DNA from: Candidatus Haiyanarchaeum thermophilum
GTDB lineage: Archaea > Nanobdellota > Nanobdellia > JAPDLS01 > Haiyanarchaeaceae
NCBI GenBank assembly: GCA_025920425.1
Contig: JAPDLS010000001.1
Coordinates: forward strand, 227,449-291,448
DNA: 64,000 bases
Direction of reading: 5' to 3'
Below the pieces are notes generated by a model that ran no database searches, was not told the origin of the DNA, and was given only the letters and a program-made list of their open reading frames with translations. A program made the translations under genes and the position numbers. This document shows, in pieces, positions 8,763-36,400 of this stretch (the first letter of the stretch is position 1; each line of letters starts with the position of its first letter).

Positions 8763-9113
8763 TTATCTGAACTCTACCCTATAATCATGGAGGTAAATTA
8801 TATGTAACTTTTGTTTTGCAGCTTTTCTCCTTAACTTAGCATCTAAGGTAGCTACAGCGCACTGATTGAGTTTGGCGTACTGAAGGATTTTTTCGTCCAC
8901 ACTTCCAGGAAACTCAAATTCCACTATTTTCACCCTCCAGCTTTTGAGAAGCTCATCTATTTCTCTCTTGAAAACTTTTCTGATCTCCTCATCACAATCC
9001 TTTAACAGGATAAATTCAAACCCTTCAGGTACTACTTCACTTATCCTATCATAAAGATTTAATCTGTGTTTTATGGCAAAGATGATGAAATTTGAATCTA
9101 ACAGGATCTTCAT
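8763..9113 (-). CDS. PIN-domain protein (conserved archaeal partner of the rpoE operon)
   Basis: 116 aa. Starts MKILLDSNFIIFA (PIN acidic motif). Position is typical upstream of rpoE'. Confidence 0.55.
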   Translation of the reverse strand: MKILLDSNFIIFAIKHRLNLYDRISEVVPEGFEFILLKDCDEEIRKVFKREIDELLKSWRVKIVEFEFPGSVDEKILQYAKLNQCAVATLDAKLRRKAAKQKLHIIYLHDYRVEFR

Positions 9114-10378
9114 GGATACTTACGAGTAGGTGTCCTAGGAAATGGGATTGCGTCTAATACGCTTTCAAGATCAAGGAGCCAAGTCAACAATCTCTCTATT
9201 CCCATCCCAAATCCTCCATGGGGAATGCTCCCATATCTCCTCAGATCCAAATACCACTCATACTCCTTAGGATTCATCCCGAATTCTCTAATCCTCTCAA
9301 TTAATTCCTCCTCGTCATCTATCCTTTCACTTCCTGAGCTAAGCTCTCCTATTCTTGGTACAAGGAGATCTACAGATTTCACCAGCTCCTTGTTGTTCTC
9401 ATAGGCCTTGCAATAAAATGCCCTAATCTTTCTTGGGTAGGCATATACAAACACAGGACCATCTTTGGCAAGAAATTTCTCCTCTTTAAAGCCTAAATCA
9501 TCTCCAAATTGGAGTTTGAATCCTCCCTCATTAAGTATCTTCAGAGCTTCATCATATGTCATCCTCCTAAAGGGCTTATTTAGCTTCTCCAGCTTCTCTA
9601 AATTTACCTTAAGTACCTCAAGCTCATCTTTACATTCCTCCAAAGTCCGCTTACATATTTCATATACCAGGTTTTCTTCCATTCTCATTATTTCATCAAT
9701 GGTAGCAAATGCCCACTCAGCTTCAGCATGCCAGTATTCTGTGAGGTGTCGGATCGTCCTAGATTTCTCAGCCCTAAAGCTTGGGGCAATGGTATAGATC
9801 TTGTCTATAGTAAAGATCAATGCTTCTGCATAGAGTTGCCAACTTTGGGTAAGGAATGCCTTATCATCGAAATATTTCACCTCAAAGAGAGTTGCTCCTC
9901 CCTCGCATGCTCCCGATACTATCATAGGAGGAGAAATCTCAATGAAACCATTTCTTTCAAAGAATTCCCGTATGAATTTCATTACTTTGCTCCTCACCCT
10001 GAAAATTGCACTCATTCTCCTACTCCTTATGGAGAGATGTCTTATATCTAGTAAGAAGGCCTTACTTACATCTCTACTTATCGGAAATCTCTCTGCTAAA
10101 TGAATTATCTCCAGATCATCCACTATCACCTCAAATCCTCCAGGAGCTCTCATGTCCTGATGAAGTATTCCCCTCGCCCTAATGCTGGATTCTATTGTAA
10201 CTCGCTCAGCTGTTTCAAATGCTTTACTCCCTCTCTTCACCACCAATTGAATTATTCCCTTTGCATCCCTAAGTACTATAAAGATCTTATCCTTAAATTC
10301 TCTCTTCCTATAAACCCAACCGAATAAGCTTACTTCAGCCCCCTCTCTCGCAGTTTTGAGTACATCACTAGTGTACAT
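9110..10378 (-). CDS. aspS: aspartyl-tRNA synthetase (class IIb, archaeal type; Asp/Asn assignment not fully resolved)
   Basis: 422 aa. N-terminal OB anticodon-binding domain, class II motif 2 FRAEKSRTIRHLTEYWHAEAE, motif 3 GGFGMGIERL. Confidence 0.8.
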   Translation of the reverse strand: MYTSDVLKTAREGAEVSLFGWVYRKREFKDKIFIVLRDAKGIIQLVVKRGSKAFETAERVTIESSIRARGILHQDMRAPGGFEVIVDDLEIIHLAERFPISRDVSKAFLLDIRHLSIRSRRMSAIFRVRSKVMKFIREFFERNGFIEISPPMIVSGACEGGATLFEVKYFDDKAFLTQSWQLYAEALIFTIDKIYTIAPSFRAEKSRTIRHLTEYWHAEAEWAFATIDEIMRMEENLVYEICKRTLEECKDELEVLKVNLEKLEKLNKPFRRMTYDEALKILNEGGFKLQFGDDLGFKEEKFLAKDGPVFVYAYPRKIRAFYCKAYENNKELVKSVDLLVPRIGELSSGSERIDDEEELIERIREFGMNPKEYEWYLDLRRYGSIPHGGFGMGIERLLTWLLDLESVLDAIPFPRTPTRKYP

Positions 10379-10394
10379 AGTTTAAACCAAAAGC

Positions 10395-11045
10395 CTAATT
10401 TTTATAAATCTTCTCAAAATACCAAATTCCTGCATCGAATTTGTGGAATTTTTTCCTGTGATACCAAATACAATGCTTAAGTCTGAATTCAAACCTATGG
10501 AGAAGGTGTGATGAAAAACCAAACTCCTTGGCAAATTTTTCGTAAAATTTGATAGAAGTGATCTTGTGAATGCTATATACTTTATTCGCAATTTCAAATG
10601 CTTTCCTCAGAAAAATTCTGTCATAGTGCTTCCGCTTTATTCCAAATGGAGGATTCATGATTACTACATCCACTTTCTGGGAAAAATCTTCTATATTCAT
10701 GCAGAGAAAATCGATTCTGCTCATCTCATACCTAGATTTCAACTCCTCATAGTTGCTTTTAGCTACTTCTATAGCTCTTGGATCTATTTCTATTGCCACA
10801 ACTTTCCTAGCTCCGAGAAGGGCGCTGCCTATTGCTAGAATTCCATTTCCGCACCCAAGATCTGCTACCAATTTCCCCTTTAAATCACCTCTTTGATAAG
10901 CTATCCAAAGTAATTGACCTGCGACCTCACTAGGTGTAGTATACTGTTCCCACCTTACATATCTCTTCTCAAGATCTTTAAGCCTTGATAAGATTATCTC
11001 CAATTCCTTCTTAGACTTCATTGCTTGAAGAGTTCCCTTACACAC
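10395..11045 (-). CDS. SAM-dependent RNA methyltransferase (COG2263/METTL5-like, NPPF motif)
   Basis: SAM motif [13 protein letters not shown], catalytic VIMNPPFG. Confidence 0.6.
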
Positions 11046-12871
11046 TTCTCAACAGTTGGATATTCTGCTCTTCCCCTTAACTCCTTCATCGCGATGTTCA
11101 GAGCTCTTTGAAGTCCAAGCTCCTTCAAATTTTTCCCAGCGAATAGCTCTCTAATTATTTTCCTCACCTCACATTTACTTAGCTTGGTAAGCTTCCTCTT
11201 AACAATTATCTCTGAAATCTCCTCTCCAGTTTTCAGAAATTCCTCCAAGACCAACTCACATGCTTCAAATACGATCTTATCTTCACTCAAAAGTCGAAGT
11301 AATTGCTTTATATCCTCTTTTCTAACCTGTGATACATCTAAACCTTTCTTCTTGAGGTTCTCCAACGAATTGAATAGCAACTTCGCTATTAAACTACCCC
11401 TCACCCCTTTGAATTCTTTCACCAGCTCCTCAAACCATTCAAGTTTTTCAGACCTAACTATCTGCTGAGCTAGCTCAGGGGAAAGACCAAGTTTGATGAA
11501 CTTCTTTATTTTCTCTTCAGGAGTCTCTGGCAATCTACTGGTAAGCATTTCTCTCTTAATTTTTACAGGAGGTAAGTCAGTTTCAGGATACATTCTACTA
11601 GCACCTGGTAACTTCCTCATGAATCTTGTAGTTAAATCCTCTTTTACTCCACGTACTTCATTTATTCCCCCATATTTGATAAGCTCAATCAATCTTTCAT
11701 ATGCCAATCTCAGTGCTTCAATAGCCTCTTCTTCCTTTCCGAAGATGAGAATGAAATTATCGTTTTCCTTAGACTTTATGTGCTCCTCTATCCTAAGAAC
11801 TTCAGTTTCACTGATCCCATATCCGGGCAATTCATCCCTATGAATGAAACCCTTTATCCTTGAGAAACTCGATATGTACTCGAGAATCTCTTGGGCTAAT
11901 CTTTTATTTGGTTGAATCTCCCACTTCATAAGTCCTCTGAAATCGGGGATTTTCATGCATAATACTTTCCCTCCACTATTCAGGGTTTTCCTTATCATCT
12001 CACACTTGGTATTGGTGAATATGTGAGATATGTCTTTACATTCAAATTTATGTCGAAGTAAGTGAGAATATCTCTGTGAGAGTTCATCTAAACTCAGCTG
12101 ACGAAGTATCTCATTTTCTATTATCTTTTCTAGATGTCTTAGATCCTGTACCCCTTTGATCTCTACTCTCCCCTTTCCCCTTACTGATACATTTACATCC
12201 TGCCTGATCGTGCCTATCCCCCTCTTCACTTTACCAGTCATCCTGAGGAGTAGGCCTATTCGCTCGGCACATTCTCTAGCCTCTTTCGGAGTACTCATAT
12301 CTGGCTCTGTCCTTATCTCTACGAGGGGTATTCCAAGTCTATCAAGTCTAAATACTTGCTCCTCTTCCCCTTCTGAGATTTTCCTAGCAGCCTCTTCTTC
12401 AAGTGCCAATAGGGAAATTCTCACTTTTCCAAATGAGCATTCTATATAGCCATTTTCTGCTACGAGCATGGTGCGTTGGAATCCTGAAACATTGCTTCCA
12501 TCTATTACTACTTTCCTCATCACGCACAATTCATCAAATATCTTCATGTGTAACATTCTAGCTATCTCTACAGCTATAGCCAGTGCCTCTTCATTTACTT
12601 GGTGAGGAGGTTCCTCATCTAGTTCTACTAAACAAGTTGTATCTGAATATGCCTCATAAATAAACTTCTTCCTCCGTATTTCCTCTTCCTTCGCAGCTAT
12701 ATCTACTTCCCCAAGCTCTCCAGCGACAGCCCTCAATCTTCTGCGTATTCTGATATCTGGAGGATCATTTCTCAGAATACTTGGGCAACTACAGAAGAGT
12801 TTATGTGTATCTAATTGTTGATGAATTTCCAACCCTATCTTCACACCGAGCTTCTTGTAATCTATCCCCAT
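11018..12871 (-). CDS. gatE: Glu-tRNA(Gln) amidotransferase subunit E
   Basis: 617 aa. Archaeal-specific GatE architecture (GatB-like catalytic core with insertion plus C-terminal YqeY-like tail). Adjacent to gatD. Confidence 0.85.
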
Positions 12872-12872
12872 T

Positions 12873-13202
12873 TTAAAACATGCTTGGATTTATTAATAGA
12901 AATCCCATATCTATCATCGTATACTCTAAATTAAATTTCTCATCATATTCCTTAAGAAATTTGATGAAGAGCTCAGGGCTCAATTCTCCAGAGCTTACTG
13001 GATATGAGCTGAGATTATAGACCTTCACGTTATATTTCTTATGGAGTTCATCAAAACTCTCCCTAATTCCAGAAATGAGATTTACAAACTCAGGTTCAAG
13101 ACTCTCACTCCTGAGGATTGAGAATTTTACCTTCTTCAGTTGCAGTACTTCTAAGATCTTCTCCAATTTATCAAAAAGTTCCGGCTTGATCATGGAACTC
13201 AC
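12873..13202 (-). CDS. hypothetical protein (109 aa) between gatD and gatE
   Basis: Only an ORF, tightly packed (overlaps the gatD stop region). No recognisable motif. Confidence 0.3.
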   Translation of the reverse strand: MSSMIKPELFDKLEKILEVLQLKKVKFSILRSESLEPEFVNLISGIRESFDELHKKYNVKVYNLSSYPVSSGELSPELFIKFLKEYDEKFNLEYTMIDMGFLLINPSMF

Positions 13203-14454
13203 TCCTCTCCTTTAATTCTCCAGCCATGTTCGTAAGCATTAATTTCTTTACTTCATCCAAGTCCTTAGTTTTTCCCAGCACATAAATTAATTTACAGTAG
13301 GCTACTTCAGGTAGCATATCCTCGCAGTAAATTGCCTTTCCTACCATTGAAACCAGCCTCAGATTTCTATAAACATATGGGTTCGTCCTCCCAAATAAAC
13401 ATTGAGATGTAATACAAACGGCTACTCCCTCCTCATATGCTCTCTTAAGCTTAGGGATGAAGGAGTATTTCTTGAAAGAAGTTGGTACGTGCCCAAGCCC
13501 TGTGCCAGCTATTACTATTCCTTTATAACCTCTATCTATAAAAAAATCTATTATTCCTGGATCAGCTCCGGGATAAGAGTAAATTAATGCTACTCTCGGC
13601 TCAAGCTTTAAATCCAACTTAATCCTAGATTCATCTCTCCTTCTATATGTATTAAGGAACTCTACCTTTCCATCGGAGAAGACCTTAGCTATAGGTTTAT
13701 CATTAATGCTCTGAAAGGCGTCTCTCCTTGAAGTATGCATCTTCCTAACCCTACAACCACGATGCAGATAACAGAAATCATCGTGTGATGAACCATGCAT
13801 ACATACCATTACTTCAGCAATATCTAAAGTGGCTGCCTTCACTGAACAGATGAGGTTGAGGAAAGCATCGCTCGAACCCCGATCGCTGCTTCTTTGAGAG
13901 CCAGTAAGCACTACTGGCTTATTCAGATTTCTTAACACGAAGCTGAGAATGGCTGAGGTGAAATGCATCGTATCAGTACCATGAGTTACCACTACCCCAT
14001 CCACATCTTCTTTTGTTAGCTCCTCAAATACTGCCCTTGCTATTCTCTTCCATAATCCTACGTGCATATCCTCGCTCATCACTTGCATTACTACTTTGCT
14101 TCTTAACTGAGCAAGTTTGAGGAGCTCAGGTACAGTGGCTAAGATATCAGAAAGCTCAAAACTGGCATGCACACCTCCGCTTAAATAATCTACTCTACTA
14201 GCAATTGTCCCTCCAGTAGATAGAATTGAGACCACAGGTAGACTCTCCTCAAACTTTATCTCTTTCCCTCTCTCCTGTTTGGGTTGAGGTAACTTTTTAA
14301 TCCGTTTAATTTGTTTTACTTGGCTCTTCCTTATCCTAATGTTGTAGCCATTTTCCAACTTCAGAATAATAAAACCTCTGTCAAAGATCTCTCCGGATGG
14401 CAACAGAATTCCTCTGTACTTGCCCGTCTTAGTTATTACCTCCACCAATTCCAT
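13171..14454 (-). CDS. gatD: Glu-tRNA(Gln) amidotransferase subunit D (asparaginase-like)
   Basis: 427 aa. Asparaginase signature ILSTGGTIAS and downstream TDTM/HGTDTM motif. N-terminal GatD-specific extension. Confidence 0.85.
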   Translation of the reverse strand: MELVEVITKTGKYRGILLPSGEIFDRGFIILKLENGYNIRIRKSQVKQIKRIKKLPQPKQERGKEIKFEESLPVVSILSTGGTIASRVDYLSGGVHASFELSDILATVPELLKLAQLRSKVVMQVMSEDMHVGLWKRIARAVFEELTKEDVDGVVVTHGTDTMHFTSAILSFVLRNLNKPVVLTGSQRSSDRGSSDAFLNLICSVKAATLDIAEVMVCMHGSSHDDFCYLHRGCRVRKMHTSRRDAFQSINDKPIAKVFSDGKVEFLNTYRRRDESRIKLDLKLEPRVALIYSYPGADPGIIDFFIDRGYKGIVIAGTGLGHVPTSFKKYSFIPKLKRAYEEGVAVCITSQCLFGRTNPYVYRNLRLVSMVGKAIYCEDMLPEVAYCKLIYVLGKTKDLDEVKKLMLTNMAGELKERSEFHDQAGTF

Positions 14455-14650: not shown

Positions 14651-15730
14651 GTGTACAAAATGGAATCCATAATCGAAAATGCATTGAAGCAAGCCAAGCA
14701 AGAAGTAAACTTCGAAGCATTGATTGCAGGCCAAGCCAACATCAAAGTAATTGGTGTAGGAGGAGCTGGAAATAACATGGTGGATTGGCTATATCACAAG
14801 GGTGTGAAGGGAGCTAAGATTATAGCATGCAATACAGATAAAGTGCAGCTCGACACGAGAGATGCGGATATCAAGATCATCCTGGGAAAGGAACTTACCA
14901 AAGGTCTGGGAGCAGGAGGATATCCTGAAATTGGAGAGCAAGCTGCTAGAGAAAGTCAGCAGGAGATCAAGGAAGCTCTCCGAGGAGCCGATATGGTCTG
15001 GATCTGCGCAGGACTTGGAGGGGGAACTGGAACTGGAGCTTCTCCAGTGATTGCCCAAATTGCAAAGGAACTTGGAGCAATAGTGATAGGAGTAGTTACC
15101 ATGCCATTCAACATAGAGAGAGCTAGAATAGATAAGGCAGAAATTGGACTGCAGAAGCTTAGGGAAATCTGTGATACTGTAATTGTGATAGACAACAATA
15201 GGCTTGTGGAAATAGCTGGAAGTCTACCAATTACTCAAGCATTCGCTGTAGCTAACGAGCTCATAGCCACCATGATCAAGGGAATAGTGGAAACCATAGC
15301 TATTCCAAGCCTAGTGAACTTAGACTTCGCAGATGTAAAGGCTATAATGAAGAAGGGAGGAGTAAGTGTGATAGGAGTCGGAGAAAGTTCAACTGAGAAT
15401 AGGGTACAGGAAGCTGTGAAGAGGGCATTGGAGCATCCGCTACTAGATGTAAGTTATGAAGGAGCTACTGGAGCTCTCATCCATATTACTGGCGGTCCAG
15501 ACCTTACATTGGAGGAAGTGAATAGGATAGGAGAACTCGTTACGGCAAGCATAGATCCCAATGCTACTGTAATTTGGGGAGCAAGGATCCAGGACGATAT
15601 GGCTGGAAAGCTCAGAGTGATGACTATTGTCACAGGAGTAAAATCTCCATACATCCTTGGACCAATGAAGACTCAGAAGGTTGAGGGAAGAGAATTGAAT
15701 GAAGATTTAGGAATCTCAGTTATTCGCTGA
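14651..15730 (+). CDS. ftsZ: cell division GTPase FtsZ
   Basis: Tubulin signature [20 protein letters not shown] nucleotide loop, NTD. ~355 aa. Confidence 0.9.
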
Positions 15731-16370: not shown

Positions 16371-18092
16371 ATGAAATTCGCTGAGGTAGTTAAGGTCTAT
16401 AAACAGCTCGAATCAACTACTAAAAGACTAGAGCTTACCTCTGTGGTAGAAAACTTCCTCAAACAAGTAGATACAAAATATCTTCCGAAAGTCCTGCTTC
16501 TCTTGAGCGGGGAGATCTTTCCTAAGTATACTGGGAAGGAAATAGGTGTGGCTTCTCAACTCTTGATTAGAGCTATTAGCATATCTACTGGCTTCTCGGA
16601 GGAGAAGATCAACGAGTTGTTCAAGAAGACTGGGGATTTAGGAATGGCAACTGAGGAAGCCGTAAAGGCTAGGAAGCAGTACCTCCTATTAACTAGAGAG
16701 CTTACGTTAGATAAGTTATTTGAGAATCTAGAAAAATGTGCAGAGCTCACTGGCCCAAGGACGGTGGATAGAAAGATAGGGCTGGTAGCAGAGCTTCTTT
16801 CTAATGCATCTGCCGAGGAAGCTAAATATGTGGTAAGACTGATCCTCGGGGAGCTAAGGGTGGGTGTAGCTGAAGGGATCATAAGAGATGCTATCGCTAG
16901 AGCTTTTCTAGTTAAGGATCCATCAAACAGGGAGGAATTGGAGAAAGCTATAGAAGCCGTAGATTATGCTTGGAATGTAACCTCAGATTTCGGAGAGGTA
17001 GCCAAAATTGCAAAAGAACAGGGAATTCAGGGATTGCTCAAGGTAAAGCCGATTTTAGGAAAACCTATCCAGCTCATGCTTGGAGAAAAAGCCCCAAATA
17101 TCGAGGAAGTGGTAAGGGAGTTCGGAAAAGTAGCTGCAGAATGGAAATACGATGGGGCGAGGGCTCAGTGCCACAAGAAAGGAGATAGGATCTGGATCTT
17201 CACGAGGAGGTTGGAGGATGTAACTACTCAATTCCCAGAGGTAGTAGAGATGTGCAGAAGGTGCTTAATTCCTAACGAATGTATTGTAGAGGGTGAAATC
17301 TTAGCCATAGATCCCAGAACTCAATCCCCACTTCCCTTCCAAGTATTGAGCCAGAGAATTCATAGGAAATATGAAATAGATAAGATGGTAAGGGAAATCC
17401 CAATCCAAGTAAATCTCTTCGATGTAGTATATGTAGACGGCAAAGTGCTCTTCAATATTCCATTCCTCGAGAGGAGGAAGATCTTGGAAAAAATAGTGAA
17501 AGTGGAGGAAGGCAAATTCCAACTGGCTAAACAGATAATAACCGATGATCTGAAGGAATTAGAGGAATTCTATCAAGAAGCTCTTAATGCCAAGCAGGAG
17601 GGCATATTTCTCAAAGTATTAAATTCTACCTACATGTTCGGTAGGAGGGTTGGAGGATGGTACAAGATAAAACCTATAATGGAAACTCTCGATCTAGTAA
17701 TAGTTGGAGCTAGTTGGGGAACAGGTAAGAGAGCTGGCTGGCTTGGCTCATTTGTACTAGCATGCAGGGATGAGGTAACAGGCAAATTCTTGGAATGTGG
17801 AATGCTGGGGACTGGAATAAAGGAAAAGAAAGAGGAAATTACCGACGTAACATTTGAGGAACTTACCAATCTGCTCAAACCACATATCGTGGCTGAGAAG
17901 GGAACTGAAGTGAGAATAGCTCCGAAGTTAGTGATAGAGGTAGCTTATCAAGAAATTCAGAGGTCCCCCCACTACGCTAGCGGTTTTGCACTCAGGTTTC
18001 CAAGGCTGGTGAGAATAAGATTTGATAAATCTCCAGAAGAATGTGATACCTTGGAGAGGGTTAAGGCCCTTTATGAAATGCAGAAAAAGTGA
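16371..18092 (+). CDS. lig: ATP-dependent DNA ligase
   Basis: 573 aa. Adenylation motif I EWKYDGARAQ (KxDG), OB-fold domain, motif VI-like C-terminus. Confidence 0.9.
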   Translation: MKFAEVVKVYKQLESTTKRLELTSVVENFLKQVDTKYLPKVLLLLSGEIFPKYTGKEIGVASQLLIRAISISTGFSEEKINELFKKTGDLGMATEEAVKARKQYLLLTRELTLDKLFENLEKCAELTGPRTVDRKIGLVAELLSNASAEEAKYVVRLILGELRVGVAEGIIRDAIARAFLVKDPSNREELEKAIEAVDYAWNVTSDFGEVAKIAKEQGIQGLLKVKPILGKPIQLMLGEKAPNIEEVVREFGKVAAEWKYDGARAQCHKKGDRIWIFTRRLEDVTTQFPEVVEMCRRCLIPNECIVEGEILAIDPRTQSPLPFQVLSQRIHRKYEIDKMVREIPIQVNLFDVVYVDGKVLFNIPFLERRKILEKIVKVEEGKFQLAKQIITDDLKELEEFYQEALNAKQEGIFLKVLNSTYMFGRRVGGWYKIKPIMETLDLVIVGASWGTGKRAGWLGSFVLACRDEVTGKFLECGMLGTGIKEKKEEITDVTFEELTNLLKPHIVAEKGTEVRIAPKLVIEVAYQEIQRSPHYASGFALRFPRLVRIRFDKSPEECDTLERVKALYEMQKK

Positions 18093-22014: not shown

Positions 22015-22122
22015 AGCCCCGTCGTCTAGCGGTCAAGGATGCAGGGCTTTGGACGGAGTCTAAAGCACTGATCCAGATGAGGAAGAAACCCTGCGACGGC
22101 GGTTCGAATCCGCCCGGGGCTA
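22015..22122 (+). tRNA. tRNA-Gln (anticodon TTG) with ~36-nt intron at canonical 37/38 position
   Basis: Acceptor AGCCCCG/CGGGGCT plus discriminator A. Anticodon stem CAGGG/CCCTG with loop CUUUGG-[intron]-A. T-arm GGCGGTTCGAATCCGCC. Confidence 0.7.
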
Positions 22123-29132: not shown

Positions 29133-31076
29133 ATGAAGGTAATCCCATCTATTTGTCCTTACTGTGGATGTGGATGCGCTCTAACTTTTAAGATAAAAGA
29201 TTCTGAAATAGAAGTGCTTCATAATCCAGAAGATGAGGTAAGTAAGGGTAAACCATGTGTGAAGGGGCTTACTTGTGCTGAACCTATTTTCGTAGAGAGA
29301 ATAAAGAACCCTATGATCAGGAGAAGTAAGCAGGCGAAATTTAAGGAGGTAAGTTGGACTGAAGCACTTGAGTTTATTAGAAAGGAAATAGAGAAATATA
29401 GTGGGGAGGAAATAGCCATTACTGGTTCTGGAGAACTTACTAATGAAGATAATTATGTTATTCAGAAGTTTGCTAGGACAGTACTTCATACAAATAATAT
29501 AGACACTACCGCAAGACTCTGTCATGCGCCCACTCTGTACGCACTTTACCAGAGCTTCGGAATCACTACAAGCCCCAATTTTCTAGAGGATATCGGCGAA
29601 TGTGACTGCGTTCTCCTCGTAGGTACTAATCCTAGGTCAAATTATCCTGTAGCCTTCAATCGGCTGATGGATGCCAAATACAAGAGAGGGGCAAAAATTA
29701 TCTCAGTGCAGACAATCTTCAACCTAACCTCTGAGTATTCGGATCTCGCTATTTGTCTTAAACCCAACACAGAAGTAGCACTTTTCAATTGCATCCTAAA
29801 TTATTTAATCGAATTCGATTTGATCGAGGAGAAGGTAAAGCGTATAGAAAATTTCGAGAGACTCAAGCAAACAGTTTCCTCCTATACCTTAGAGAGGACT
29901 TCATATATCTGCGGATTGGAAAAGGAGATTCTACAAAGGATTTGTGAGATGATTGGAAGTGCTGAGAAATTTGGAATAATGCATGGAATGGGCCTTACCC
30001 AACACATCTTTGGGGTGGAGAACGTGCTTTCCCTTCTCAATTTAGCCATAGCGAAGAATGCCTACCTGCTTTCCCTTAGAGGAAAAGTAAACATTCAGGG
30101 GGCTGGAGATATGGGATGCTTCCCAAACCTTCAGGACTTTTGGAGTAAAGAGGATATAAATCGTTTGCAACAGTTATGGGGAGTTGAGCTTCCTAAGAGG
30201 ATAGGTAAAACCCTCACTGAGACATTCATCTCGGATCCAGTTAAATTTTACTATATTATAGCCATGGATCCTGCTAAATCTTTACCCTATCTGAATGAGG
30301 TGCATCGCAATTTGAACAGGATGTTCATAGTACTCCAACACCACTACACTACTTATACTATGAAATTTGCGAATGTGCTCCTACCAAGTTGTAGTTTACT
30401 TGAGAAAGAAGGTACAATCACAAATGCTGAGGGAAGGGTAAGGTATGTGAGGAGAGTTATTTCTCCATTGCATTCCTCCATGCAGGATTGGAAGATCCTA
30501 GTTTCATTGGCTCAGTTACTGGAAGTTGAGAAAATCTTCCCCTACGAGGAGGAAATCGACATTTTTGAAGAGATCACTGAGGTAATTCCATCCTATAGAC
30601 ATCTGAGGGCTAAGGAGATATATTCTGGCTTCGATGGCTTCACCCAAAAGGCTCCGAAGTTCTTTAGATTTAACCCAGTAGAATTTAGAGGGTTTGAGGA
30701 AACAACTGATAGGAAGTTTAATTTTATGCTCATCACTGCTAGACAACCTTACCACTTCTGTACAGGAGAAGCCACCCTCAGGTCCAAAACTTTGAAAAAA
30801 TTCTTGGATAAGGGTTTCTGCTATTTAAATCCATTCGATGCAAGAGATCTTGGAATCTTGGATGGGGATCTCATAGAGCTAGAATCAAGAGCAGGTAAAC
30901 TCAAGGCTCAAGTGAAAATTGATCCTAGGGTAACCCAAGGAATAGTTGTAGCCCCATTCTTCGATGATGAGCTTCTAGTAAATAAATTGATTCCCCTCTC
31001 CTTTGATCCTCATACTAAAACCCCTAATTATAAAAACGTTGCTGTGAGGATTAGAAAATTATCGAAGAGGAAATAG
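29133..31076 (+). CDS. molybdopterin (bis-MGD) oxidoreductase catalytic subunit, formate dehydrogenase-like
   Basis: 647 aa. N-terminal 4Fe-4S motif CPYCGCGCAL...KGKPCVKG, MopB domains, C-terminal molybdopterin dinucleotide-binding beta-barrel (GDLIELESRAGKL...V). Confidence 0.8.
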   Translation: MKVIPSICPYCGCGCALTFKIKDSEIEVLHNPEDEVSKGKPCVKGLTCAEPIFVERIKNPMIRRSKQAKFKEVSWTEALEFIRKEIEKYSGEEIAITGSGELTNEDNYVIQKFARTVLHTNNIDTTARLCHAPTLYALYQSFGITTSPNFLEDIGECDCVLLVGTNPRSNYPVAFNRLMDAKYKRGAKIISVQTIFNLTSEYSDLAICLKPNTEVALFNCILNYLIEFDLIEEKVKRIENFERLKQTVSSYTLERTSYICGLEKEILQRICEMIGSAEKFGIMHGMGLTQHIFGVENVLSLLNLAIAKNAYLLSLRGKVNIQGAGDMGCFPNLQDFWSKEDINRLQQLWGVELPKRIGKTLTETFISDPVKFYYIIAMDPAKSLPYLNEVHRNLNRMFIVLQHHYTTYTMKFANVLLPSCSLLEKEGTITNAEGRVRYVRRVISPLHSSMQDWKILVSLAQLLEVEKIFPYEEEIDIFEEITEVIPSYRHLRAKEIYSGFDGFTQKAPKFFRFNPVEFRGFEETTDRKFNFMLITARQPYHFCTGEATLRSKTLKKFLDKGFCYLNPFDARDLGILDGDLIELESRAGKLKAQVKIDPRVTQGIVVAPFFDDELLVNKLIPLSFDPHTKTPNYKNVAVRIRKLSKRK

Positions 31077-31096: not shown

Positions 31097-32392
31097 ATGT
31101 ATGGGAGAAGTATGAAGCCTAGCGATATTATTAGATATTATAAGAAGGCAGAGGTGAAGGAAAAGATAATAAAGGTAGCTAAGGATAGAGAGGTTGTACC
31201 TCTTCTCCTCACAGGGGAATTTGGGACAAGACCTCAAGCGATATTGTTTGAGAGGGATTATGATGAGTTAATAAAGGAAGGGGTAGCTAGTCTTCACATG
31301 AGCATTGAGAGATGGAGAAATCCTATGCTCCTGAAGAGCGAAATGAAAAGATCTGAACTTGATGAGCTCAGAATAGGCTGGGATCTCATAATAGATATCG
31401 ATGCAAAGGCCTTTGAGTTCTCAAAGCTTTGTGCTCCTTTAGTCATTGAAGCCCTAGAGCTTCATGGGGTGAAGGACATATTTGTGAAGTTCTCTGGAAG
31501 AAATGGATTTCACATCGCAGTCCCATTTGAGACATTCCCACACAGAGTAGGAGAAAAACTTGTGGATCGAATGTTTCCTGAAGCTGCTAGGATAATTGTC
31601 GCCTACCTTAAACAGATGATCGAAAAGCATCTGGCTGAGGAACTCCAGACAAATTTCTCCCTCGAGGAATTGTGTAGGCTTTCCAATTTAAAAATGGAAG
31701 AACTAATAGATGAAGAACTTGGGATAAATCCTTATAAATTAGTGGATATAGATCCAGTAGCTATCTCCTCTAGGCACTTAGTGAGATGCCCATATTCCCT
31801 TCATGAAAAGACTTGGTTGATCAGTATACCTATAGACAAACGTAAAATTCTAAGCTTCTCTAAGGAAGAGGCCAAACCATTCCAAGTTTCATTTGAAGGG
31901 GACTTCTTAAGTAGGGAGGATTATGAATTATACAGCGCTAGGGAGCTGTTCCTCCAAGCCTTCGATTGGGCTGCAAGGCATGAAGTGGAGGAGAGAGTCT
32001 CTAGGCAGATTGGGGAAAGATTCGAGTTACCAAAACAGGCAATTCCTGAACAATTTTTCCCTCCATGTATAAAAAGTATCTTGAGAGGTGTGAGCGACGG
32101 AAGGAAGAGGTCTATATTTATCCTCATCAACTTCCTGCGCCTTATGGGTTATGATTGGAATTCTGTGGAGAAGATAATTTGGGAGTGGAATAAGAGAAAT
32201 GTGGAGCCCCTGCGGGATTCCTATATAAACTCTCAACTCAACTGGCATAAGAAGTTGAGGGAAGTGTATACTCCTCCGAATTGTGATCACGAGAACTATT
32301 ATCGTAACATGGGAGTATGTGCTCCTGATGAACTTTGTAAAAAAATAAAAAACCCGCTTACCTATGCATTAAGGAGATACAGAAAGGGTTAA
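31097..32392 (+). CDS. priS: DNA primase, PriS catalytic domain fused to a PriL-CTD-like 4Fe-4S domain
   Basis: 431 aa. AEP motifs GWDLIIDIDAKAFEF (DxD) and FSGRNGFHIAVPF. C-terminal ~120 aa has the FFPPCIKSILRG (p58C-like PPCM) motif plus three further Cys (NCDHE...GVCAPDELC), giving a 4-Cys cluster. Confidence 0.7.
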   Translation: MYGRSMKPSDIIRYYKKAEVKEKIIKVAKDREVVPLLLTGEFGTRPQAILFERDYDELIKEGVASLHMSIERWRNPMLLKSEMKRSELDELRIGWDLIIDIDAKAFEFSKLCAPLVIEALELHGVKDIFVKFSGRNGFHIAVPFETFPHRVGEKLVDRMFPEAARIIVAYLKQMIEKHLAEELQTNFSLEELCRLSNLKMEELIDEELGINPYKLVDIDPVAISSRHLVRCPYSLHEKTWLISIPIDKRKILSFSKEEAKPFQVSFEGDFLSREDYELYSARELFLQAFDWAARHEVEERVSRQIGERFELPKQAIPEQFFPPCIKSILRGVSDGRKRSIFILINFLRLMGYDWNSVEKIIWEWNKRNVEPLRDSYINSQLNWHKKLREVYTPPNCDHENYYRNMGVCAPDELCKKIKNPLTYALRRYRKG

Positions 32393-32393
32393 G

Positions 32394-32990
32394 ATGGAAG
32401 AGGAGATATTAACTTACGAAGATATTCGAAAGGTCTTTAGGAAGGAGAAAGAGGAGAATAGTCTGGTAAAGGTAGAGGAAGATTTCCTTAAGAAAGTATC
32501 TATTTATCTTAGCGAGAAGCGAAGACTCCTAGAAGAGGCTAGGAAAGAAGAAGGGAAACTCTCGAGGGAGATGGCGGAAAAGCTAGAGCTGGAAATAAAA
32601 CATGCACTTTCAGCTCTCGAGAAGTGGTACAACCTGCGGGAGAGGAAGATATTAGATCTTGCCCTAGTGGGAGTTAAAACGAGAAATGTTGATCTCAGCA
32701 AGTTGCTTGCAGATGAGAGGGAACTTTTTGAGAAGCTTGTGGAGATCCTAAGGGAGTATAGGGAAAGATTTAAGAACTTATTCCAAACCCAGCCAAAGCC
32801 GAAGAAGCCACATTCTGATAAGCAGCTCGTAAGGGTAATAGAAAAAATAGATAAATTTTTATGGACTGATGGAAATACTTACGGACCATATGAGGAGGGG
32901 GAAGTAGCAAACCTCCCAAAGGAAATAGCTCAACATCTGATTGAGTTAGGAAAGGTGGAGGAGGTGAAGGTGGAAGATGAAGAAAGTTAA
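32394..32990 (+). CDS. putative GINS subunit (Gins51/Gins15-like)
   Basis: 198 aa. Helical A-domain followed by a small C-terminal beta domain. Position immediately downstream of priS matches the conserved priS-gins15 neighbourhood in archaea. Sequence similarity judged only by architecture. Confidence 0.4.
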   Translation: MEEEILTYEDIRKVFRKEKEENSLVKVEEDFLKKVSIYLSEKRRLLEEARKEEGKLSREMAEKLELEIKHALSALEKWYNLRERKILDLALVGVKTRNVDLSKLLADERELFEKLVEILREYRERFKNLFQTQPKPKKPHSDKQLVRVIEKIDKFLWTDGNTYGPYEEGEVANLPKEIAQHLIELGKVEEVKVEDEES

Positions 32991-33273
32991 AGAGGTGAGA
33001 AGGTATTGCAAGTATTGCAGAAAACATACTCTCCACAAGGTAAGTCAGCTCAAGCTTACTAGAAAGAGAGGAGCACTCAAGTTAAGCAGTAGGAAATTCG
33101 AGAGAATCATGAAAGGGTATGGAGGCTTTCCTAGGCCAAAAACTATGAAGAGCTCTAGACATGGGGTAAAGACTACAAAGAGAGTTACTCTCCTCTACAA
33201 GTGCTCTGAATGTAATAGGATCACTCCCTCCATTGGAATCAAGGCTAAAAAATTCAGCTTCGTTGAAAAATGA
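32977..33273 (+). CDS. rpl44e: 50S ribosomal protein L44e
   Basis: 98 aa. MKKVKEVRRYCKYCRKHTLHKV... and C-terminal CSEC Zn ribbon. Confidence 0.8.
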   Translation: MKKVKEVRRYCKYCRKHTLHKVSQLKLTRKRGALKLSSRKFERIMKGYGGFPRPKTMKSSRHGVKTTKRVTLLYKCSECNRITPSIGIKAKKFSFVEK

Positions 33274-33439: not shown

Positions 33440-34234
33440 ATGTTCTATAAGAAAGAGGGACTTCCAAAGCTGGATGAACTTGTAATTTGCAAAGTAAGTA
33501 GAATCACTCCACATACGGCATTCGTTACATTAGAAGAATATAGAGATAAAGAGGCTATGCTCCACATCTCTGAGGTTTCATCTAAATGGGTAAGTGATAT
33601 TCGGGAAATACTAAAGGAGGGAAAACTTATCGTGTGCAAAGTGCTGAAGGTAGATGAAAAGACAGGATTCATAGACGTTTCCTTGAAGAGAGTGAGTAGG
33701 ACTGAAGAGCTCATTAAGAGAGATGAATGGAAGAACGAGAATCGTGTTGAGAAAATGCTGGAAGCAGCAGCTTCCAAGATCAACTCAAGCCTAGAGGAGG
33801 CATATAATGCTATTGGTTATAAGATCCTCAAAAAATATGGAAGCTTGAGAGCAATAATTCCAGAAATTGCTGAAAGAGGGGAAGAAGCCTTGAGGGAACT
33901 TGGAGTTGATGAGAAATGGATAGGGAGTTTCATGGATGTAATAGAGGATTATCTTAAGAGTTCTAAGGTTTCCATTTCAGTGCTCTTGACCTTAAAAAGC
34001 TTCGATGGAGATGGTGTAGTTAAGATAAGAAATCTATTTGATGAGATAAGTAAGAAGTGTAGACGAAGTAGGATGGAATTTACCTTCTCCTACTTTGGGG
34101 CTCCGAGGTACAGGATTAAACTTACCTCCAATAATTACAAGCAAATAGAGAAGTTCCTCTCTTCCCTTTCAGCTGAGCTTCAAAACTTATCCAAGAAGTA
34201 TGGACTTGAGATCGAGATGAAGAGGGAGGAATGA
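33440..34234 (+). CDS. eif2a: translation initiation factor 2 alpha subunit
   Basis: 264 aa. N-terminal S1 domain, central helical and C-terminal alpha-beta domains. Conserved L44e-S27e-eIF2a-Nop10 cluster. Confidence 0.85.
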   Translation: MFYKKEGLPKLDELVICKVSRITPHTAFVTLEEYRDKEAMLHISEVSSKWVSDIREILKEGKLIVCKVLKVDEKTGFIDVSLKRVSRTEELIKRDEWKNENRVEKMLEAAASKINSSLEEAYNAIGYKILKKYGSLRAIIPEIAERGEEALRELGVDEKWIGSFMDVIEDYLKSSKVSISVLLTLKSFDGDGVVKIRNLFDEISKKCRRSRMEFTFSYFGAPRYRIKLTSNNYKQIEKFLSSLSAELQNLSKKYGLEIEMKREE

Positions 34235-34371
34235 AGACAAAAATTTTATATTGTGAAAATTGTAGGATTTATACATTAAAGCCCATATGCAAGTTGTGTG
34301 GGGGAAAGACTGTTGAGAGAAAACCGATGAGATTTTCCCTCCAAGATAAATACCTGAAGTATAGAAAATGA
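34231..34371 (+). CDS. nop10: H/ACA RNP protein Nop10 (manually found)
   Basis: ATGA overlap with eif2a. MKTKILYCENCRIYTLKPICKLCGGKTVERKPMRFSLQDKYLKYRK is the Nop10 Zn ribbon. ATGA overlap again with the next gene. Confidence 0.7.
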   Translation: MKTKILYCENCRIYTLKPICKLCGGKTVERKPMRFSLQDKYLKYRK

Positions 34372-35132
34372 AATTTTTGATCAAAAAATTCGAGAAAGAA
34401 GTGAAGCTAAATGACCCTCTCCTAATTGAGGGTCTGCCAGGAATAGGAAATGTAGCTAGAATAGCTGTCTCTTATCTAATCAATAAGTTGAATGCTAGAC
34501 CATATCTCTCCATTTATTCCTACATCTCTCCGAATTCCGTATTCGTAAATGAGGATGCCACAATAGAGCTGCCAAAGATAGATTTCTACTATTACAAGAA
34601 TAAGAAAGGAAGGGACATTGTATTTGTATCTGGAGATTACCAACCTGGGAGGGAGGACTACAGTTATCTCCTTGCCGAAAAGATTCTTGACATAGCAGAG
34701 GAACTCAATGTGAAGGAAATAATCACACTGGGGGGCTTTCCAGTAATCGGAGAGTTAAATAAAGTAAGAGTCTATGGGGCAATTACTACCAAAGAATACA
34801 TAAAAGATTTCTCGAAGTTGGGAGTAATCTTCGATGGTTCTGGTGTGAACTTGATTATAGGAGCTGCAGGCCTTCTCCTTGGATTAGGAAAGTTAAGGGG
34901 AATGAAGGGAATTAGTCTCCTCGCAGAGACTAAGACTATGCCTGAATATGCTGGAATAAAAAGCAGTAGGGAAATACTGAGAATCTTGAATGATTATCTA
35001 AATCTTGGACTTTCCCTACAGGATCTAGACAAGGAAATAGAGAGGATGGAAAGTAGGAAAATAGAGAGAAAAAGGACTAGAAGAAAAGCTCTTACCGAAC
35101 CTAAAGTAGAGGAGACGAGATACATTGGATAG
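34368..35132 (+). CDS. PAC2-family protein (proteasome assembly chaperone-like, ATP-grasp-like fold)
   Basis: 254 aa. LIEGLPGIGNVARIA...FVSGDYQP pattern of the archaeal PAC2 family. Conserved position after nop10. Confidence 0.55.
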   Translation: MKFLIKKFEKEVKLNDPLLIEGLPGIGNVARIAVSYLINKLNARPYLSIYSYISPNSVFVNEDATIELPKIDFYYYKNKKGRDIVFVSGDYQPGREDYSYLLAEKILDIAEELNVKEIITLGGFPVIGELNKVRVYGAITTKEYIKDFSKLGVIFDGSGVNLIIGAAGLLLGLGKLRGMKGISLLAETKTMPEYAGIKSSREILRILNDYLNLGLSLQDLDKEIERMESRKIERKRTRRKALTEPKVEETRYIG

Positions 35133-35134
35133 TT

Positions 35135-36400
35135 ATGAGGGTAATCTCTGACTTCCACATTCACTCATTCTGGAGTAGGGCTACGAGCAAGGAAATGAAT
35201 TTAGACGGGATAGCTGCCGGAGCGAGAGTGAAAGGATTAAATCTTGTGGGTACTGGAGATTTTACACATCCTAAGTGGTTATCTGAGCTGAAGGAAAAAC
35301 TTGAGCCCATTCCTGAGAATGGAGTGTTTCGTTACCAGGGCGTTTTTTTCACGCTTACCACAGAAGTAGCTACATACTTTACCTTTCTGGGAAGATGGAG
35401 GAGGATTCATCATGTGATTCATGCCCCCTCTTTTGAGATCGTAGCCCAAATCAATGAATCCCTTTCCAAATATGGGGACCTCAGTGCTGATGGCAGGCCA
35501 ATTTTGAGGATGAGTGCTCCAGAACTTGTAGAGACACTAATGGAGATAAGTCCAGATATTCTCATCTACCCTGCGCACGCTTGGACTCCATGGATGTCAT
35601 GCTTCGGAAGCCGCTCAGGATTCGATTCTCTAGAAGAATGCTATCAAGATCAGGTAAAGCACATATCTGCCTTAGAAACAGGACTCTCCAGTGATCCTCC
35701 AATGAACTGGAGATTGAGCTCCTTAGATAGATTCACTTTGCTTAGCAACAGCGATAGTCACTCTCCCCATCCATGGAGACTCGGAAGAGAAGCCAATGTA
35801 TTTGAACTCAAAGAGATCGATTACTGGGAGATCTTGGAAGTGATAAGACGTAAAGATAGGGAAAGATTTTTATATACGATTGAGGTGGATCCCAATTACG
35901 GAAAGTATCATTTCGATGGACACAGGAATTGCAAGATAAGCTTACATCCTATCGATGCCATTAAGCTGGGTAATATCTGCCCAAAGTGTGGAAAAAAATT
36001 GACTGTTGGAGTACTACATAGAGTTGAGGAACTAGCCGATAGGGAGGAAGGATTTATTCCAGAAAATGCCATTCCATTTAAGACGTTGCTTCCTCTCTAT
36101 GAAATCATTTCCTCAGTTTTGGGGATAGGTGAACTTTACTCTCAAAGGGTGCTGGAAGAGCATAATAAACTGATTAACAAATTTCAAAACGAATTGGATG
36201 TGCTTCTAATGGTCCCAAAAGAGAAACTACTTGAGGTCACAAGTAAGGAAATTGCAGATGCAATAATAAAAGTAAGGGAAAGAAAAGTAAAATATATTCC
36301 CGGCTACGATGGAGTCTATGGTAGGCCTATCTTCGATGAAAGTTTCGAAGTAAGTAAAATAAACTTCTACCCATTCCAACGACGTTTAGATCAATTCTAG
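35135..36400 (+). CDS. PHP-domain phosphoesterase with Zn ribbon (COG1379-like)
   Basis: 421 aa. N-terminal DFHIHSFWS (PHP His motif), further His clusters, CPKCGKKL Zn ribbon, C-terminal helical region. Confidence 0.5.
   Translation: MRVISDFHIHSFWSRATSKEMNLDGIAAGARVKGLNLVGTGDFTHPKWLSELKEKLEPIPENGVFRYQGVFFTLTTEVATYFTFLGRWRRIHHVIHAPSFEIVAQINESLSKYGDLSADGRPILRMSAPELVETLMEISPDILIYPAHAWTPWMSCFGSRSGFDSLEECYQDQVKHISALETGLSSDPPMNWRLSSLDRFTLLSNSDSHSPHPWRLGREANVFELKEIDYWEILEVIRRKDRERFLYTIEVDPNYGKYHFDGHRNCKISLHPIDAIKLGNICPKCGKKLTVGVLHRVEELADREEGFIPENAIPFKTLLPLYEIISSVLGIGELYSQRVLEEHNKLINKFQNELDVLLMVPKEKLLEVTSKEIADAIIKVRERKVKYIPGYDGVYGRPIFDESFEVSKINFYPFQRRLDQF

Follow-up and report, generated by a model that had tools for sequence, protein, structure and literature searches.

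A single-chain PriS-PriL(CTD) primase encoded beside gins51 in Candidatus Haiyanarchaeum thermophilum, a probable member of the NEQ395 family

The locus described here raises the question of whether one 431-aa protein serves as the replicative primase of Candidatus Haiyanarchaeum thermophilum, and whether such an arrangement sets this organism apart. An earlier note on the 64-kb stretch of DNA that was analysed (the window) had described the protein as a PriS catalytic domain joined in cis to a four-cysteine domain of the PriL-CTD type, and had regarded the fusion as a rarity of a few reduced lineages and a sign of a streamlined replisome in this organism. Sequence profiles, conservation and genomic context agree on the fusion; the rarity was overstated, and the streamlining concerns nothing special to the organism. 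We consider, with a probability of about 0.9, that this is the replicative primase of the organism, a monomeric enzyme of the kind typical of Undinarchaeota plus DPANN Cluster 2, that is, a member of the NEQ395 family. The one-piece primase call is correct but ordinary, its architecture, distribution, neighbourhood and biochemistry having all been published.

All the motifs previously quoted for the open reading frame were located in its translation: DIDAKAFEF at residues 100-108, FSGRNGFHIAVPF at 132-144, FFPPCIKSILRG at 320-331, PPNCDHE at 393-399 and GVCAPDELC at 406-414. The protein contains seven cysteines (C112, C193, C231, C324, C396, C408 and C414). Its full-length AF2 model, with a mean pLDDT of 91, consists of two domains joined by a long helix (Table 1). 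A fold search with this entire model returned mostly matches to the PriS domain and was uninformative on the C-terminal one.

Table 1. Features of the priSL locus and of the co-directional genes that follow it (positions in the window)
Feature	Position	Strand	Basis
priSL, single-chain PriS-PriL(CTD) primase gene	31097..32392	+	ORF, 431 aa plus stop; Pfam PF01896 + PF04104; NCBIfam PriL and PriS models; AF2
PriS-type AEP catalytic domain, residues 1-281	31097..31939	+	PF01896; Foldseek; family profile matches
AEP motif I, D100-x-D102, predicted metal-binding aspartates (NEQ395 D87/D89)	31394..31402	+	conservation
AEP motif II, S133-G-R-N-G-F-H139 (NEQ395 S119/H125)	31493..31513	+	conservation
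AEP motif III region, D219...H227..R230 (NEQ395 D194/H202/R205)	31751..31786	+	conservation
Long linker alpha-helix between the two domains, residues 282-305	31940..32011	+	AF2 helix
Flexible hinge, residues 306-316	32012..32044	+	low AF2 pLDDT
PriL-CTD-type helical 4Fe-4S domain (predicted), residues 317-431	32045..32389	+	PriL profiles, P. abyssi PriL, family matches
Cys324 (FFPPC), predicted Fe-S ligand 1 (NEQ395 C289)	32066..32068	+	invariant; aligns with FPPC of P. abyssi PriL
R336-K-R338-S-I-F341, predicted site for initiating nucleotide, primer 5' end and template (NEQ395 R301/R303/F306)	32102..32119	+	conservation
Cys396 (PPNC), predicted Fe-S ligand 2 (NEQ395 C364)	32282..32284	+	invariant; aligns with PPNC of P. 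abyssi PriL
Cys408, predicted Fe-S ligand 3 (NEQ395 C376)	32318..32320	+	at least 90% conserved; aligns with LCTPD of P. abyssi PriL
Cys414, predicted Fe-S ligand 4 (NEQ395 C384)	32336..32338	+	invariant; aligns with KHCK of P. abyssi PriL
gins51 (Gins15), AB-type GINS subunit, 198 aa	32394..32990	+	PF22090 Gins51_C; PDB 3anw_A
Gins51 helical A domain, about residues 6-126	32409-32771	+	part of gins51
Gins51 B domain, residues 146-189	32829-32960	+	Gins51_C match
Ribosomal protein L44e	32977..33273	+	PF00935 E 2e-16; NCBIfam L44e 79.5 bits, under cutoff 87
Ribosomal protein S27e, 55 aa	33270..33437	+	NF001629 E 4.5e-25, above cutoff
aIF-2 alpha	33440..34234	+	NF003062 E 2.7e-70, above cutoff
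Nop10, 46 aa	34231..34371	+	NF009623 E 4.6e-15
PAC2-family protein	34368..35132	+	PF09754 E 2.6e-42
Endonuclease Q homologue, at the end of the co-directional cluster	35135..36400	+	PfuEndoQ 5zb8_A E 1.8e-71 over residues 3-406; TIGR00375

The N-terminal half is recognized as PriS-type both by profile and by fold. Pfam PF01896 covers residues 103-247 with 27.0 bits, just over its cutoff of 26.8, and 56 of the 59 family members match it as well, while the best Foldseek matches of the model are P. abyssi PriS (9f26_A) and the human and yeast Pri1 proteins (E about 1e-7, probability 1.00). The AEP motifs DxD, SGxxGxH and D...H..R are all intact. Both aspartates of motif I are invariant in 59/59 homologues and in 81/81 wider relatives; in motif II, S133, G134, G137 and H139 are invariant among the 59, and the wider set retains H139 in 81/81 and S133 in 79/81; in motif III, position 219 is D or E, and H227 and R230 are kept, in all 81. 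In NEQ395, the double mutant D87A+D89A and the mutants of motif III (D194/H202/R205) have no activity (PMC10250227). Furthermore, C112, C193 and C231 all vary among the 81 relatives, and the N-terminal domain is therefore devoid of a conserved Cys-based zinc site.

An AEP core of this kind could also belong to a primase with an accessory or repair role, in a genome that encodes a canonical PriS/PriL pair elsewhere. In favour of this, the primase search covered 64 kb, out of a contig that measures 136 kb or more and a genome larger still, and the core weakly matches the related LigD_Prim-Pol model, the only other family matched in the 59-member set, over the N-terminal domain. We nevertheless regard it as very improbable. 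HMMs of each half, searched against the window translated in all six frames, matched the 431-aa protein alone, so that these 64 kb carry no further sequence resembling PriS or PriL, in line with the claim that they hold no separate priL. Moreover, according to published surveys, Undinarchaeota and Cluster 2 DPANN without exception carry the fused version in place of the separate priS and priL genes of other archaea (PMC7414124, bioRxiv 10.64898/2026.06.17.729505), N. equitans is reported to have no other AEP (PMC10250227), and priSL sits at the priS position of a conserved gene supercluster (PMC2643942). As for a LigD/NHEJ polymerase, this reading was rejected: the matches to PF21686 fall short of the cutoff and extend no further than the common AEP core, and no Ku family was matched among the window genes scanned.

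The protein is one of a very large family. About 1981 full-length homologue clusters at 90% identity cover 95-99% of the query (E down to 1e-264), and 317-711 representative clusters at 50% identity share the same PriS-PriL architecture (317 at E <= 1e-30). A misassembly or false fusion can be discarded, as the same single reading frame exists on hundreds of independent contigs. Among reference-genome contigs there are 142 relatives, of which 80, with 36-50% identity, were kept; these are labelled Nanoarchaeota, Woese-, Pace-, Aenigmat-, Nanohalo- or Undinarchaeota, Nanopusillaceae included. The best database match is 90% identical to the protein, and the nearest reference-genome relative found (L001, labelled Nanoarchaeota AUK136) only 50%. 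The PriS-PriL fusion had been noted in Nanoarchaeum equitans in 2005, it is common to Undinarchaeota plus DPANN Cluster 2 (PMC7414124, PMC3914693, bioRxiv 10.64898/2026.06.17.729505), and it was biochemically characterised as NEQ395 in 2023 (Schneider, Bergsch and Lipps, PMC10250227). Being clade-wide, the fusion marks the clade and is not a peculiarity of Candidatus Haiyanarchaeum thermophilum.

The genomic context points in the same direction. priSL is the first gene of a tight co-directional cluster, priSL-gins51-L44e-S27e-aIF2alpha-Nop10-PAC2-EndoQ, whose junctions range from -14 to +2 nt, with a spacer of 1 nt between its first two genes; from this packing, priSL is probably co-transcribed with gins51. 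The 198-aa product of the latter, for which a GINS-like nature had been proposed, matches Gins51_C (PF22090) over its B domain with E 1e-8 and 35.3 bits, above the curated cutoff of 27, presents a weak Sld5 A-domain match in Pfam at residues 17-125, and aligns nearly full length (residues 11-191, E 1.2e-4) with TkoGins51 (PDB 3ANW chain A). By these matches, the gene beside the primase encodes Gins51, a GINS subunit that belongs to the MCM helicase complex. A Gins23 assignment was set aside, since the NCBIfam match is weak (E 0.002) and limited to the common A domain, and the C-terminal position of the B domain is that of the Gins51 (AB) type, according to the AB/BA definition of GINS types (PMC3114041).

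The cluster corresponds to the archaeal PPsG-LSIN supercluster, PCNA-PriS-Gins15 / L44E-S27E-aIF2alpha-Nop10 (Berthon et al. 2008, PMC2643942), with the same order and orientation from the primase through Gins15/51, L44e, S27e and aIF-2 alpha to Nop10. It differs from it in the upstream position, where an FdhA-like oxidoreductase gene stands in place of PCNA, which is likewise missing upstream in several lineages (PMC2643942), and in its downstream extension by the PAC2 and EndoQ genes. The same gene order is seen again in Undinarchaeota, Nanohaloarchaea, Aenigmatarchaeota and Woesearchaeota, and the near-zero spacing between priSL and gins51 is retained in the first three and in some Woesearchaeota.

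It could still be argued that the protein is the primase-polymerase of an integrated plasmid or virus, in the manner of PolpTN2 or pRN1 ORF904, rather than a cellular replicative primase. Mobile elements commonly carry PriS domains fused to helical-bundle primase domains (PMC3973330, PMC10250227), the C-terminal domain gives weak fold matches in the viral library (phage PriCT-1/2 domains, baculovirus LEF-2 and phage primases), and it is argued in a preprint of 2026 that the DPANN family as a whole derives originally from a mobile element (bioRxiv 10.64898/2026.06.17.729505). However, the location in a core replication and translation supercluster, the recurrence of this synteny in the lineages just named, and a rough NJ tree in which the relatives group largely by lineage all speak against it. 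In addition, integrase, capsid and helicase-fusion families were not matched among the neighbouring genes scanned, and no sequence similarity was reported between PolpTN2 and the primases of nanosized archaea (Raymann et al., PMC3914693). Such an origin is very improbable.

Of the two Pfam profiles proposed as a check, the one for the catalytic half passed; PF04104, the one for the C-terminal domain, matched residues 299-417 with 19.9 bits, below its 22.4 cutoff. However, 53 of the 59 family members match PF04104 at E <= 1e-3 (best 1e-11), and five NCBIfam PriL models match the domain with E from 4e-12 to 3e-6. These models align only through about the last third of PriL, which indicates that the PriL N-terminal domain is absent from the protein. 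P. abyssi PriL (9f26_B) is the best PDB sequence match, with E 1e-8, and its cysteines align one-to-one with C324, C396, C408 and C414, as expected from the four-Cys cluster claimed in the earlier note. Together with those to the full-length homologues, these matches exceed chance by a wide margin. Among the 59 homologues C324, C396 and C414 are invariant and C408 is at least 90% conserved; each of the four is kept in 72-78 of the 81 wider relatives, and three relatives (L039, L042 and L061) have lost them all. Conservation is also high at the predicted nucleotide-binding site, where all 81 relatives have R338 and either R or K at position 336, and 75 of the 81 keep F341. In NEQ395, the substitutions R301A, R303A and F306A abolish priming and leave elongation intact, and the protein displays an Fe-S chromophore that disappears in Cys mutants; Cys-to-Ala mutants are still active (PMC10250227).

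That the domain would instead be a PriX-like or lineage-specific helical bundle without Fe-S, with incidental or zinc-binding cysteines, finds some basis in the Cys-less relatives, in the active Cys mutants of NEQ395 and in a Foldseek search of the PDB, where the isolated domain (AF2 pLDDT 85.5) obtained as best hits S. solfataricus PriX (5of3_C/F and 4wyh) and not PriL-CTD, but those hits are non-significant (E 0.09-0.26), PriX is itself described as a PriL variant without Fe-S cluster (PMC10250227), and the significant PriL profiles, the aligned and retained cysteines and the NEQ395 chromophore make this hardly credible. With its ligand cysteines and its PriL profile matches, the domain does not give the result that the earlier note had named as a refutation, a failure to match PriL-CTD.

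Between the two modules of the NEQ395-type primase, the AF2 pLDDT falls below 50 at residues 305-308, the block mean dropping to 48 over 301-310. This hinge corresponds to the protease-sensitive transition known between the domains of NEQ395, whose model also contains a long connecting helix and in which the length of the linker controls primer length (PMC10250227).

Altogether, a mechanism can be proposed by analogy with NEQ395. D100, D102 and D219 would bind metal, and H67, S133, H139, H227 and R230 the nucleotide, in an AEP domain that would polymerise ribonucleotides. The helix and the hinge would tether it to the compact helical domain homologous to the PriL C-terminal domain, where the four cysteines should carry a [4Fe-4S] cluster and where R336, R338 and F341 should bind the initiating nucleotide together with the template and the 5' end of the primer, and so allow a dinucleotide to form. 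The two domains would act only in cis, the tether length setting that of the primer, as in NEQ395, for which the cis-only action, the role of the linker as a ruler, Fe-S binding and a primer of about 9 nt were demonstrated (PMC10250227). The covalent link replaces the PriL N-terminal domain, the bridge between PriS and PriL-CTD in two-subunit primases. For the present protein, we infer both the enzymatic activity and the Fe-S binding from its family.

A contact between the primase and GINS may likewise be envisaged. The near-zero spacing of priSL and gins51 could reflect a direct complex, in which Gins51 would dock the primase onto MCM, standing in for the PriL N-terminal domain (and for Gins23 where the latter is absent), and so constitute a minimal MCM-Gins51-PriSL primosome. 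Since catalysis in vitro proceeds without the Fe-S cluster, and a few lineages have lost it, the cluster could be a regulatory or docking element in that assembly. This scheme is speculative and, in our estimate, rather unlikely.

As a discovery, the protein adds little, the fused primase being already known. It is, however, a taxonomic marker that places the contig in Undinarchaeota plus DPANN Cluster 2. The window also encodes a full-length reverse gyrase, and the two genes together point to a thermophilic DPANN archaeon, one that is poorly represented among reference genomes, as seen from the 50% identity of the nearest species representative found. No member of the NEQ395 family was found among solved structures, and an orthologue from a thermophile, whose fold is predicted with confidence, could be a suitable target for the structure of a minimal AEP primase, which the field lacks. 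Moreover, comparing the naturally Cys-less relatives with this Cys-bearing protein offers a handle on the role of the primase Fe-S cluster.

Set beside the known systems, the protein is closest to NEQ395. In both, a single chain of about 400-430 aa runs from a PriS AEP domain through a long linker helix and a hinge to a four-Cys PriL-CTD, and each NEQ395 residue that was mutated (PMC10250227) has a conserved counterpart here, an equivalence derived from motif identity and from constant offsets per motif block. Full-length homology extends, with 37-50% identity, to the orthologues of Nanopusillaceae, Undinarchaeota, Nanohaloarchaea and other lineages. The protein comes from a different, uncultured organism, and no functional difference is apparent. 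Like the canonical heterodimeric PriS-PriL enzymes of archaea and eukaryotes (for example P. abyssi 9F26 and human PRIM1/PRIM2), it has the AEP fold with its catalytic motifs, and its C-terminal domain is homologous to their Fe-S domain, down to the arrangement of the four cysteines, but the PriL N-terminal domain is missing and the modules that are separate subunits there are covalently linked here. PriX of Sulfolobales (PDB 4WYH, 5OF3) resembles it as a compact PriL-CTD-related helical domain that supports primer initiation; unlike PriX, a separate third subunit, the present domain keeps the four ligand cysteines. Finally, PolpTN2 (Thermococcus nautilus plasmid pTN2), pRN1 ORF904 and RSF1010 RepB' also combine an AEP and a helical regulatory domain in a single chain (PMC3973330, PMC10250227), but they are plasmid-borne and of independent origin, whereas priSL is a chromosomal gene that belongs to a core gene cluster.

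The 431-residue priSL product can be read, with a probability of about 0.9, as a single-chain replicative primase in which AEP catalysis is combined with a tethered PriL-CTD-type Fe-S domain. Both ORFs described in the earlier note were found in the window with all the motifs quoted for them (Table), and four of the seven cysteines of the primase (C324, C396, C408 and C414) lie within its last 108 residues. In a profile search of the kind suggested there, Pfam PF01896 (DNA_primase_S) matched residues 103-247 with 27.0 bits, just above its cutoff of 26.8, PF04104 (DNA_primase_lrg) matched residues 299-417 with 19.9 bits, under its cutoff of 22.4, and five NCBIfam PriL equivalog models matched residues ~303-428 (E 4e-12 to 3e-6), NCBIfam offering the stronger support for the PriL identity of the C-terminal part. 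Since each of these NCBIfam matches is confined to about the final third of its model, the PriL N-terminal domain is absent. Furthermore, the best sequence match among solved structures is P. abyssi PriL (9f26_B, E 1e-8), in which the cysteines of FPPC, PPNC, LCTPD and HCK correspond by alignment to C324, C396, C408 and C414, respectively. Sequence profiles, conservation and gene context support the proposed fusion in cis. Among 59 aligned homologues, the PriS model matches 56 and the PriL model 53 (best E 1e-11), the sole further family being LigD_Prim-Pol, a related AEP model overlapping the N-terminal domain.

Table. Features of the window and motifs of the primase
Feature	Position	Strand	Remarks
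Reverse gyrase, full-length single-chain, 1181 aa	1499..5044	+	zinc finger, helicase, Toprim, topoisomerase IA domains
AspRS, 216-aa ORF, GatE, GatD cluster	9110..14454	-	
FtsZ	14651..15730		
ATP-dependent DNA ligase	16371..18092		
tRNA match, 108 nt	22015..22122	+	length could accommodate an intron
Polytopic membrane protein, 584 aa	26478..28232	-	T2SSF-type match, weak and under its cutoff (E 8e-5)
FdhA-like molybdopterin oxidoreductase	29133..31076	+	TIGR01591, E 1e-145, below its cutoff
Primase ORF (priSL), 431 aa	31097..32392	+	
DIDAKAFEF	primase residues 100-108		
FSGRNGFHIAVPF	primase residues 132-144		
FFPPCIKSILRG	primase residues 320-331		
PPNCDHE	primase residues 393-399		
GVCAPDELC	primase residues 406-414		
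gins51 ORF, 198 aa	32394..32990	+	Gins51_C match, adjoins priSL
Endonuclease Q homologue	35135..36400	+	last cluster gene; PfuEndoQ 5zb8_A, E 1.8e-71
Five consecutive genes, 298, 295, 316, 848, 384 aa	36424..42902	-	unmatched run
Gene order: priSL - gins51 - L44e - S27e - aIF-2 alpha - Nop10 - PAC2 - EndoQ		+	

According to Raymann et al. (PMC3914693), the joining of the PriS catalytic and PriL Fe-S domains was first recognised in N. equitans by Iyer et al. 2005; Raymann et al. extended it to further nanosized archaea, and Dombrowski et al. considered it a shared derived trait of Undinarchaeota and DPANN Cluster 2 (PMC7414124). More recently, a 2026 preprint with a 154-sequence primase phylogeny named the clade after it (bioRxiv 10.64898/2026.06.17.729505). 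Our own searches agree with this picture: ~1981 clusters at 90% identity share the length and coverage of the window primase, and representative clusters at 50% identity number 711, 494 and 317 at E <= 1e-3, 1e-10 and 1e-30, respectively. Six peptide patterns alone retrieved 142 relatives on reference-genome contigs, and the labels of the 80 retained are the expected DPANN lineages. The fused primase itself stands, but its supposed rarity was overstated (317-711 clusters), and the architecture tells no more about this organism than that it belongs to a large DPANN clade. In a rough NJ tree, where named lineages form largely coherent clusters, the window protein stands beside that of a MAG with the label Nanoarchaeota AUK136, to which it is 50% identical. 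The DPANN-type fused primase also occurs at loci L002, L021, L022, L030, L031, L062 and L064, from reference MAGs labelled "uncultured Methanosarcinales archaeon"; mislabelling or contamination of these bins is probable, as noted for other MAGs (bioRxiv 10.64898/2026.06.17.729505). Some family representatives (P0128, P0165, P0180 and P0252) reach 880-1020 aa, with the primase match split or beginning ~560-810 residues in, and many members of 500-550 aa have a ~70-100-aa insertion near residues 190-215; the extra length could correspond to inteins or additional domains.

That the protein is an accessory enzyme, with a canonical PriS/PriL pair elsewhere, seems improbable in view of this literature and of a scan of the window. 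HMMs built from each family half, run with filters off on all six-frame segments, match this ORF (E 2e-121 and 5e-63) and no second PriS- or PriL-like sequence in the 64 kb, all other matches having E > 0.3; the earlier note was thus right that the window has no separate priL.

Turning back to the single-chain primase, the AEP residues D100, D102, S133, G134, G137, H139, D219, R226, H227 and R230 and the C-terminal C324, R338, F341, C396, C408 and C414 either do not vary among the 59 homologues or are kept in at least 90% of them. The same pattern appears in 81 sequences from reference-genome loci, in which C112, C193 and C231 are variable, unlike the four C-terminal cysteines. All residues mutated in NEQ395, the monomeric primase of N. 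equitans (H58, D87/D89, S119, H125, D194, H202, R205, C289, R301, R303, F306, C364, C376, C384), have counterparts at a constant offset within each motif block, the mapping being drawn from motifs and spacing rather than from alignment of the NEQ395 sequence. All four Fe-S cysteines are replaced (by TYYE, TYYE and SYQL) in three fused primases, L039 519-1760, L042 6001-7248 and L061 6001-7443, from two Nanohaloarchaea B1-Br10 MAGs and one Nanoarchaeota SCGC AAA011-G17; the also nanohaloarchaeal L079 retains them. Judging by sequence, these lineages seem to have lost the cluster naturally, which would fit with NEQ395, whose Cys-to-Ala mutants are still active in vitro and can thus dispense with it (PMC10250227).

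AlphaFold2, with the 59-sequence alignment, gave a model of mean pLDDT 91, in which the N-terminal domain is alpha/beta and the C-terminal one helical, the two being joined by a long helix (282-305) and a low-confidence hinge (~305-316). With the whole model, Foldseek retrieved P. abyssi PriS, human and yeast Pri1 and LigD polymerase domains (E ~1e-7), which confirms the catalytic half. The isolated CTD (residues 317-431) gave weak, non-significant matches, PriX being the best, and a PriX-like domain was the outcome that the earlier note had set against its own proposal. However, PriX is described as a PriL variant without the Fe-S cluster (PMC10250227), whereas this CTD retains four ligand cysteines and matches PriL profiles, which makes a PriX-like, cluster-free domain very unlikely.

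The proposed GINS-like neighbour was likewise borne out. Gins51_C matches residues 146-189 of the 198-aa protein (Pfam, E 1e-8, above cutoff), a weak Sld5-type helical match covers residues 17-125, and residues 11-191 align with chain A (188 residues, taken here to be Gins51) of 3ANW, a crystal structure of GINS from T. kodakarensis. With the A domain first and the B domain last, as in the Gins51/Sld5/Psf1 type (PMC3114041), the protein is Gins51. A single nucleotide separates the two ORFs, and priSL is the first of a series of genes on one strand whose junctions range from -14 to +2 nt, so that co-transcription with gins51 is probable; some primase-GINS contact would be possible. A gins51 homologue was detected in the ~6-kb flanks of 27 of the 80 related loci, in 16 of which it is the next gene after the primase; the complete gene order is found again in Undinarchaeota, Nanohaloarchaea, Aenigmatarchaeota and some Woesearchaeota, and five loci have an EndoQ homologue downstream of PAC2, three of them on the cluster strand. 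Elsewhere the window carries core chromosomal genes (reverse gyrase, DNA ligase, Hel308-type helicase, FtsZ, GatD/GatE, AspRS, ProRS). The primase gene is chromosomal, and this core context and conserved synteny leave hardly any room for a mobile-element primase-polymerase.

Ending 20 nt upstream of the primase gene, the FdhA-like gene encodes a protein with a Cys-type ARLCHAP motif; among DPANN archaea, a metabolic gene of this kind would be unusual, and no homologue occurs near the primase in the 80 related loci. The full-length reverse gyrase implies that the host DPANN organism is a thermophile or hyperthermophile, and the AspRS/GatE/GatD cluster points to tRNA-dependent amidation. The 584-aa protein, flanked by small unannotated ORFs, may serve as the platform protein on which a pilus or archaellum is assembled. 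No product of the five-gene run has a match in Pfam, NCBIfam or PADLOC. Three of them start with a lipoprotein-like signal sequence that ends in LGC, another has ~10 TM segments and the fifth an N-terminal anchor, so that the run resembles an uncharacterised module of the membrane or cell surface.

The fused architecture is thus already known, and NEQ395 provides its biochemistry: it is a monomer containing a [4Fe-4S] cluster, primes at triplets with a central T, makes primers of ~9 nt, initiates only with the PriL domain in cis and uses its linker as a primer length ruler (Schneider et al. 2023; PMC10250227). For the window primase, whose activity and Fe-S binding we infer, the mechanism draws on its homology and gene context, on the conservation of residues and on the predicted fold, the biochemistry being that of NEQ395. 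The AEP domain would be the catalytic part, while R336, R338 and F341 of the tethered domain would hold the initiating nucleotide, primer 5' end and template and thereby allow formation of the first dinucleotide. The tether of helix and hinge would connect the two parts in place of the PriL N-terminal domain, and the length of the primers probably depends on it. The predicted layout agrees with that published for NEQ395, and the gene cluster is the archaeal PPsG-LSIN supercluster published in 2008 (PMC2643942), but without PCNA.
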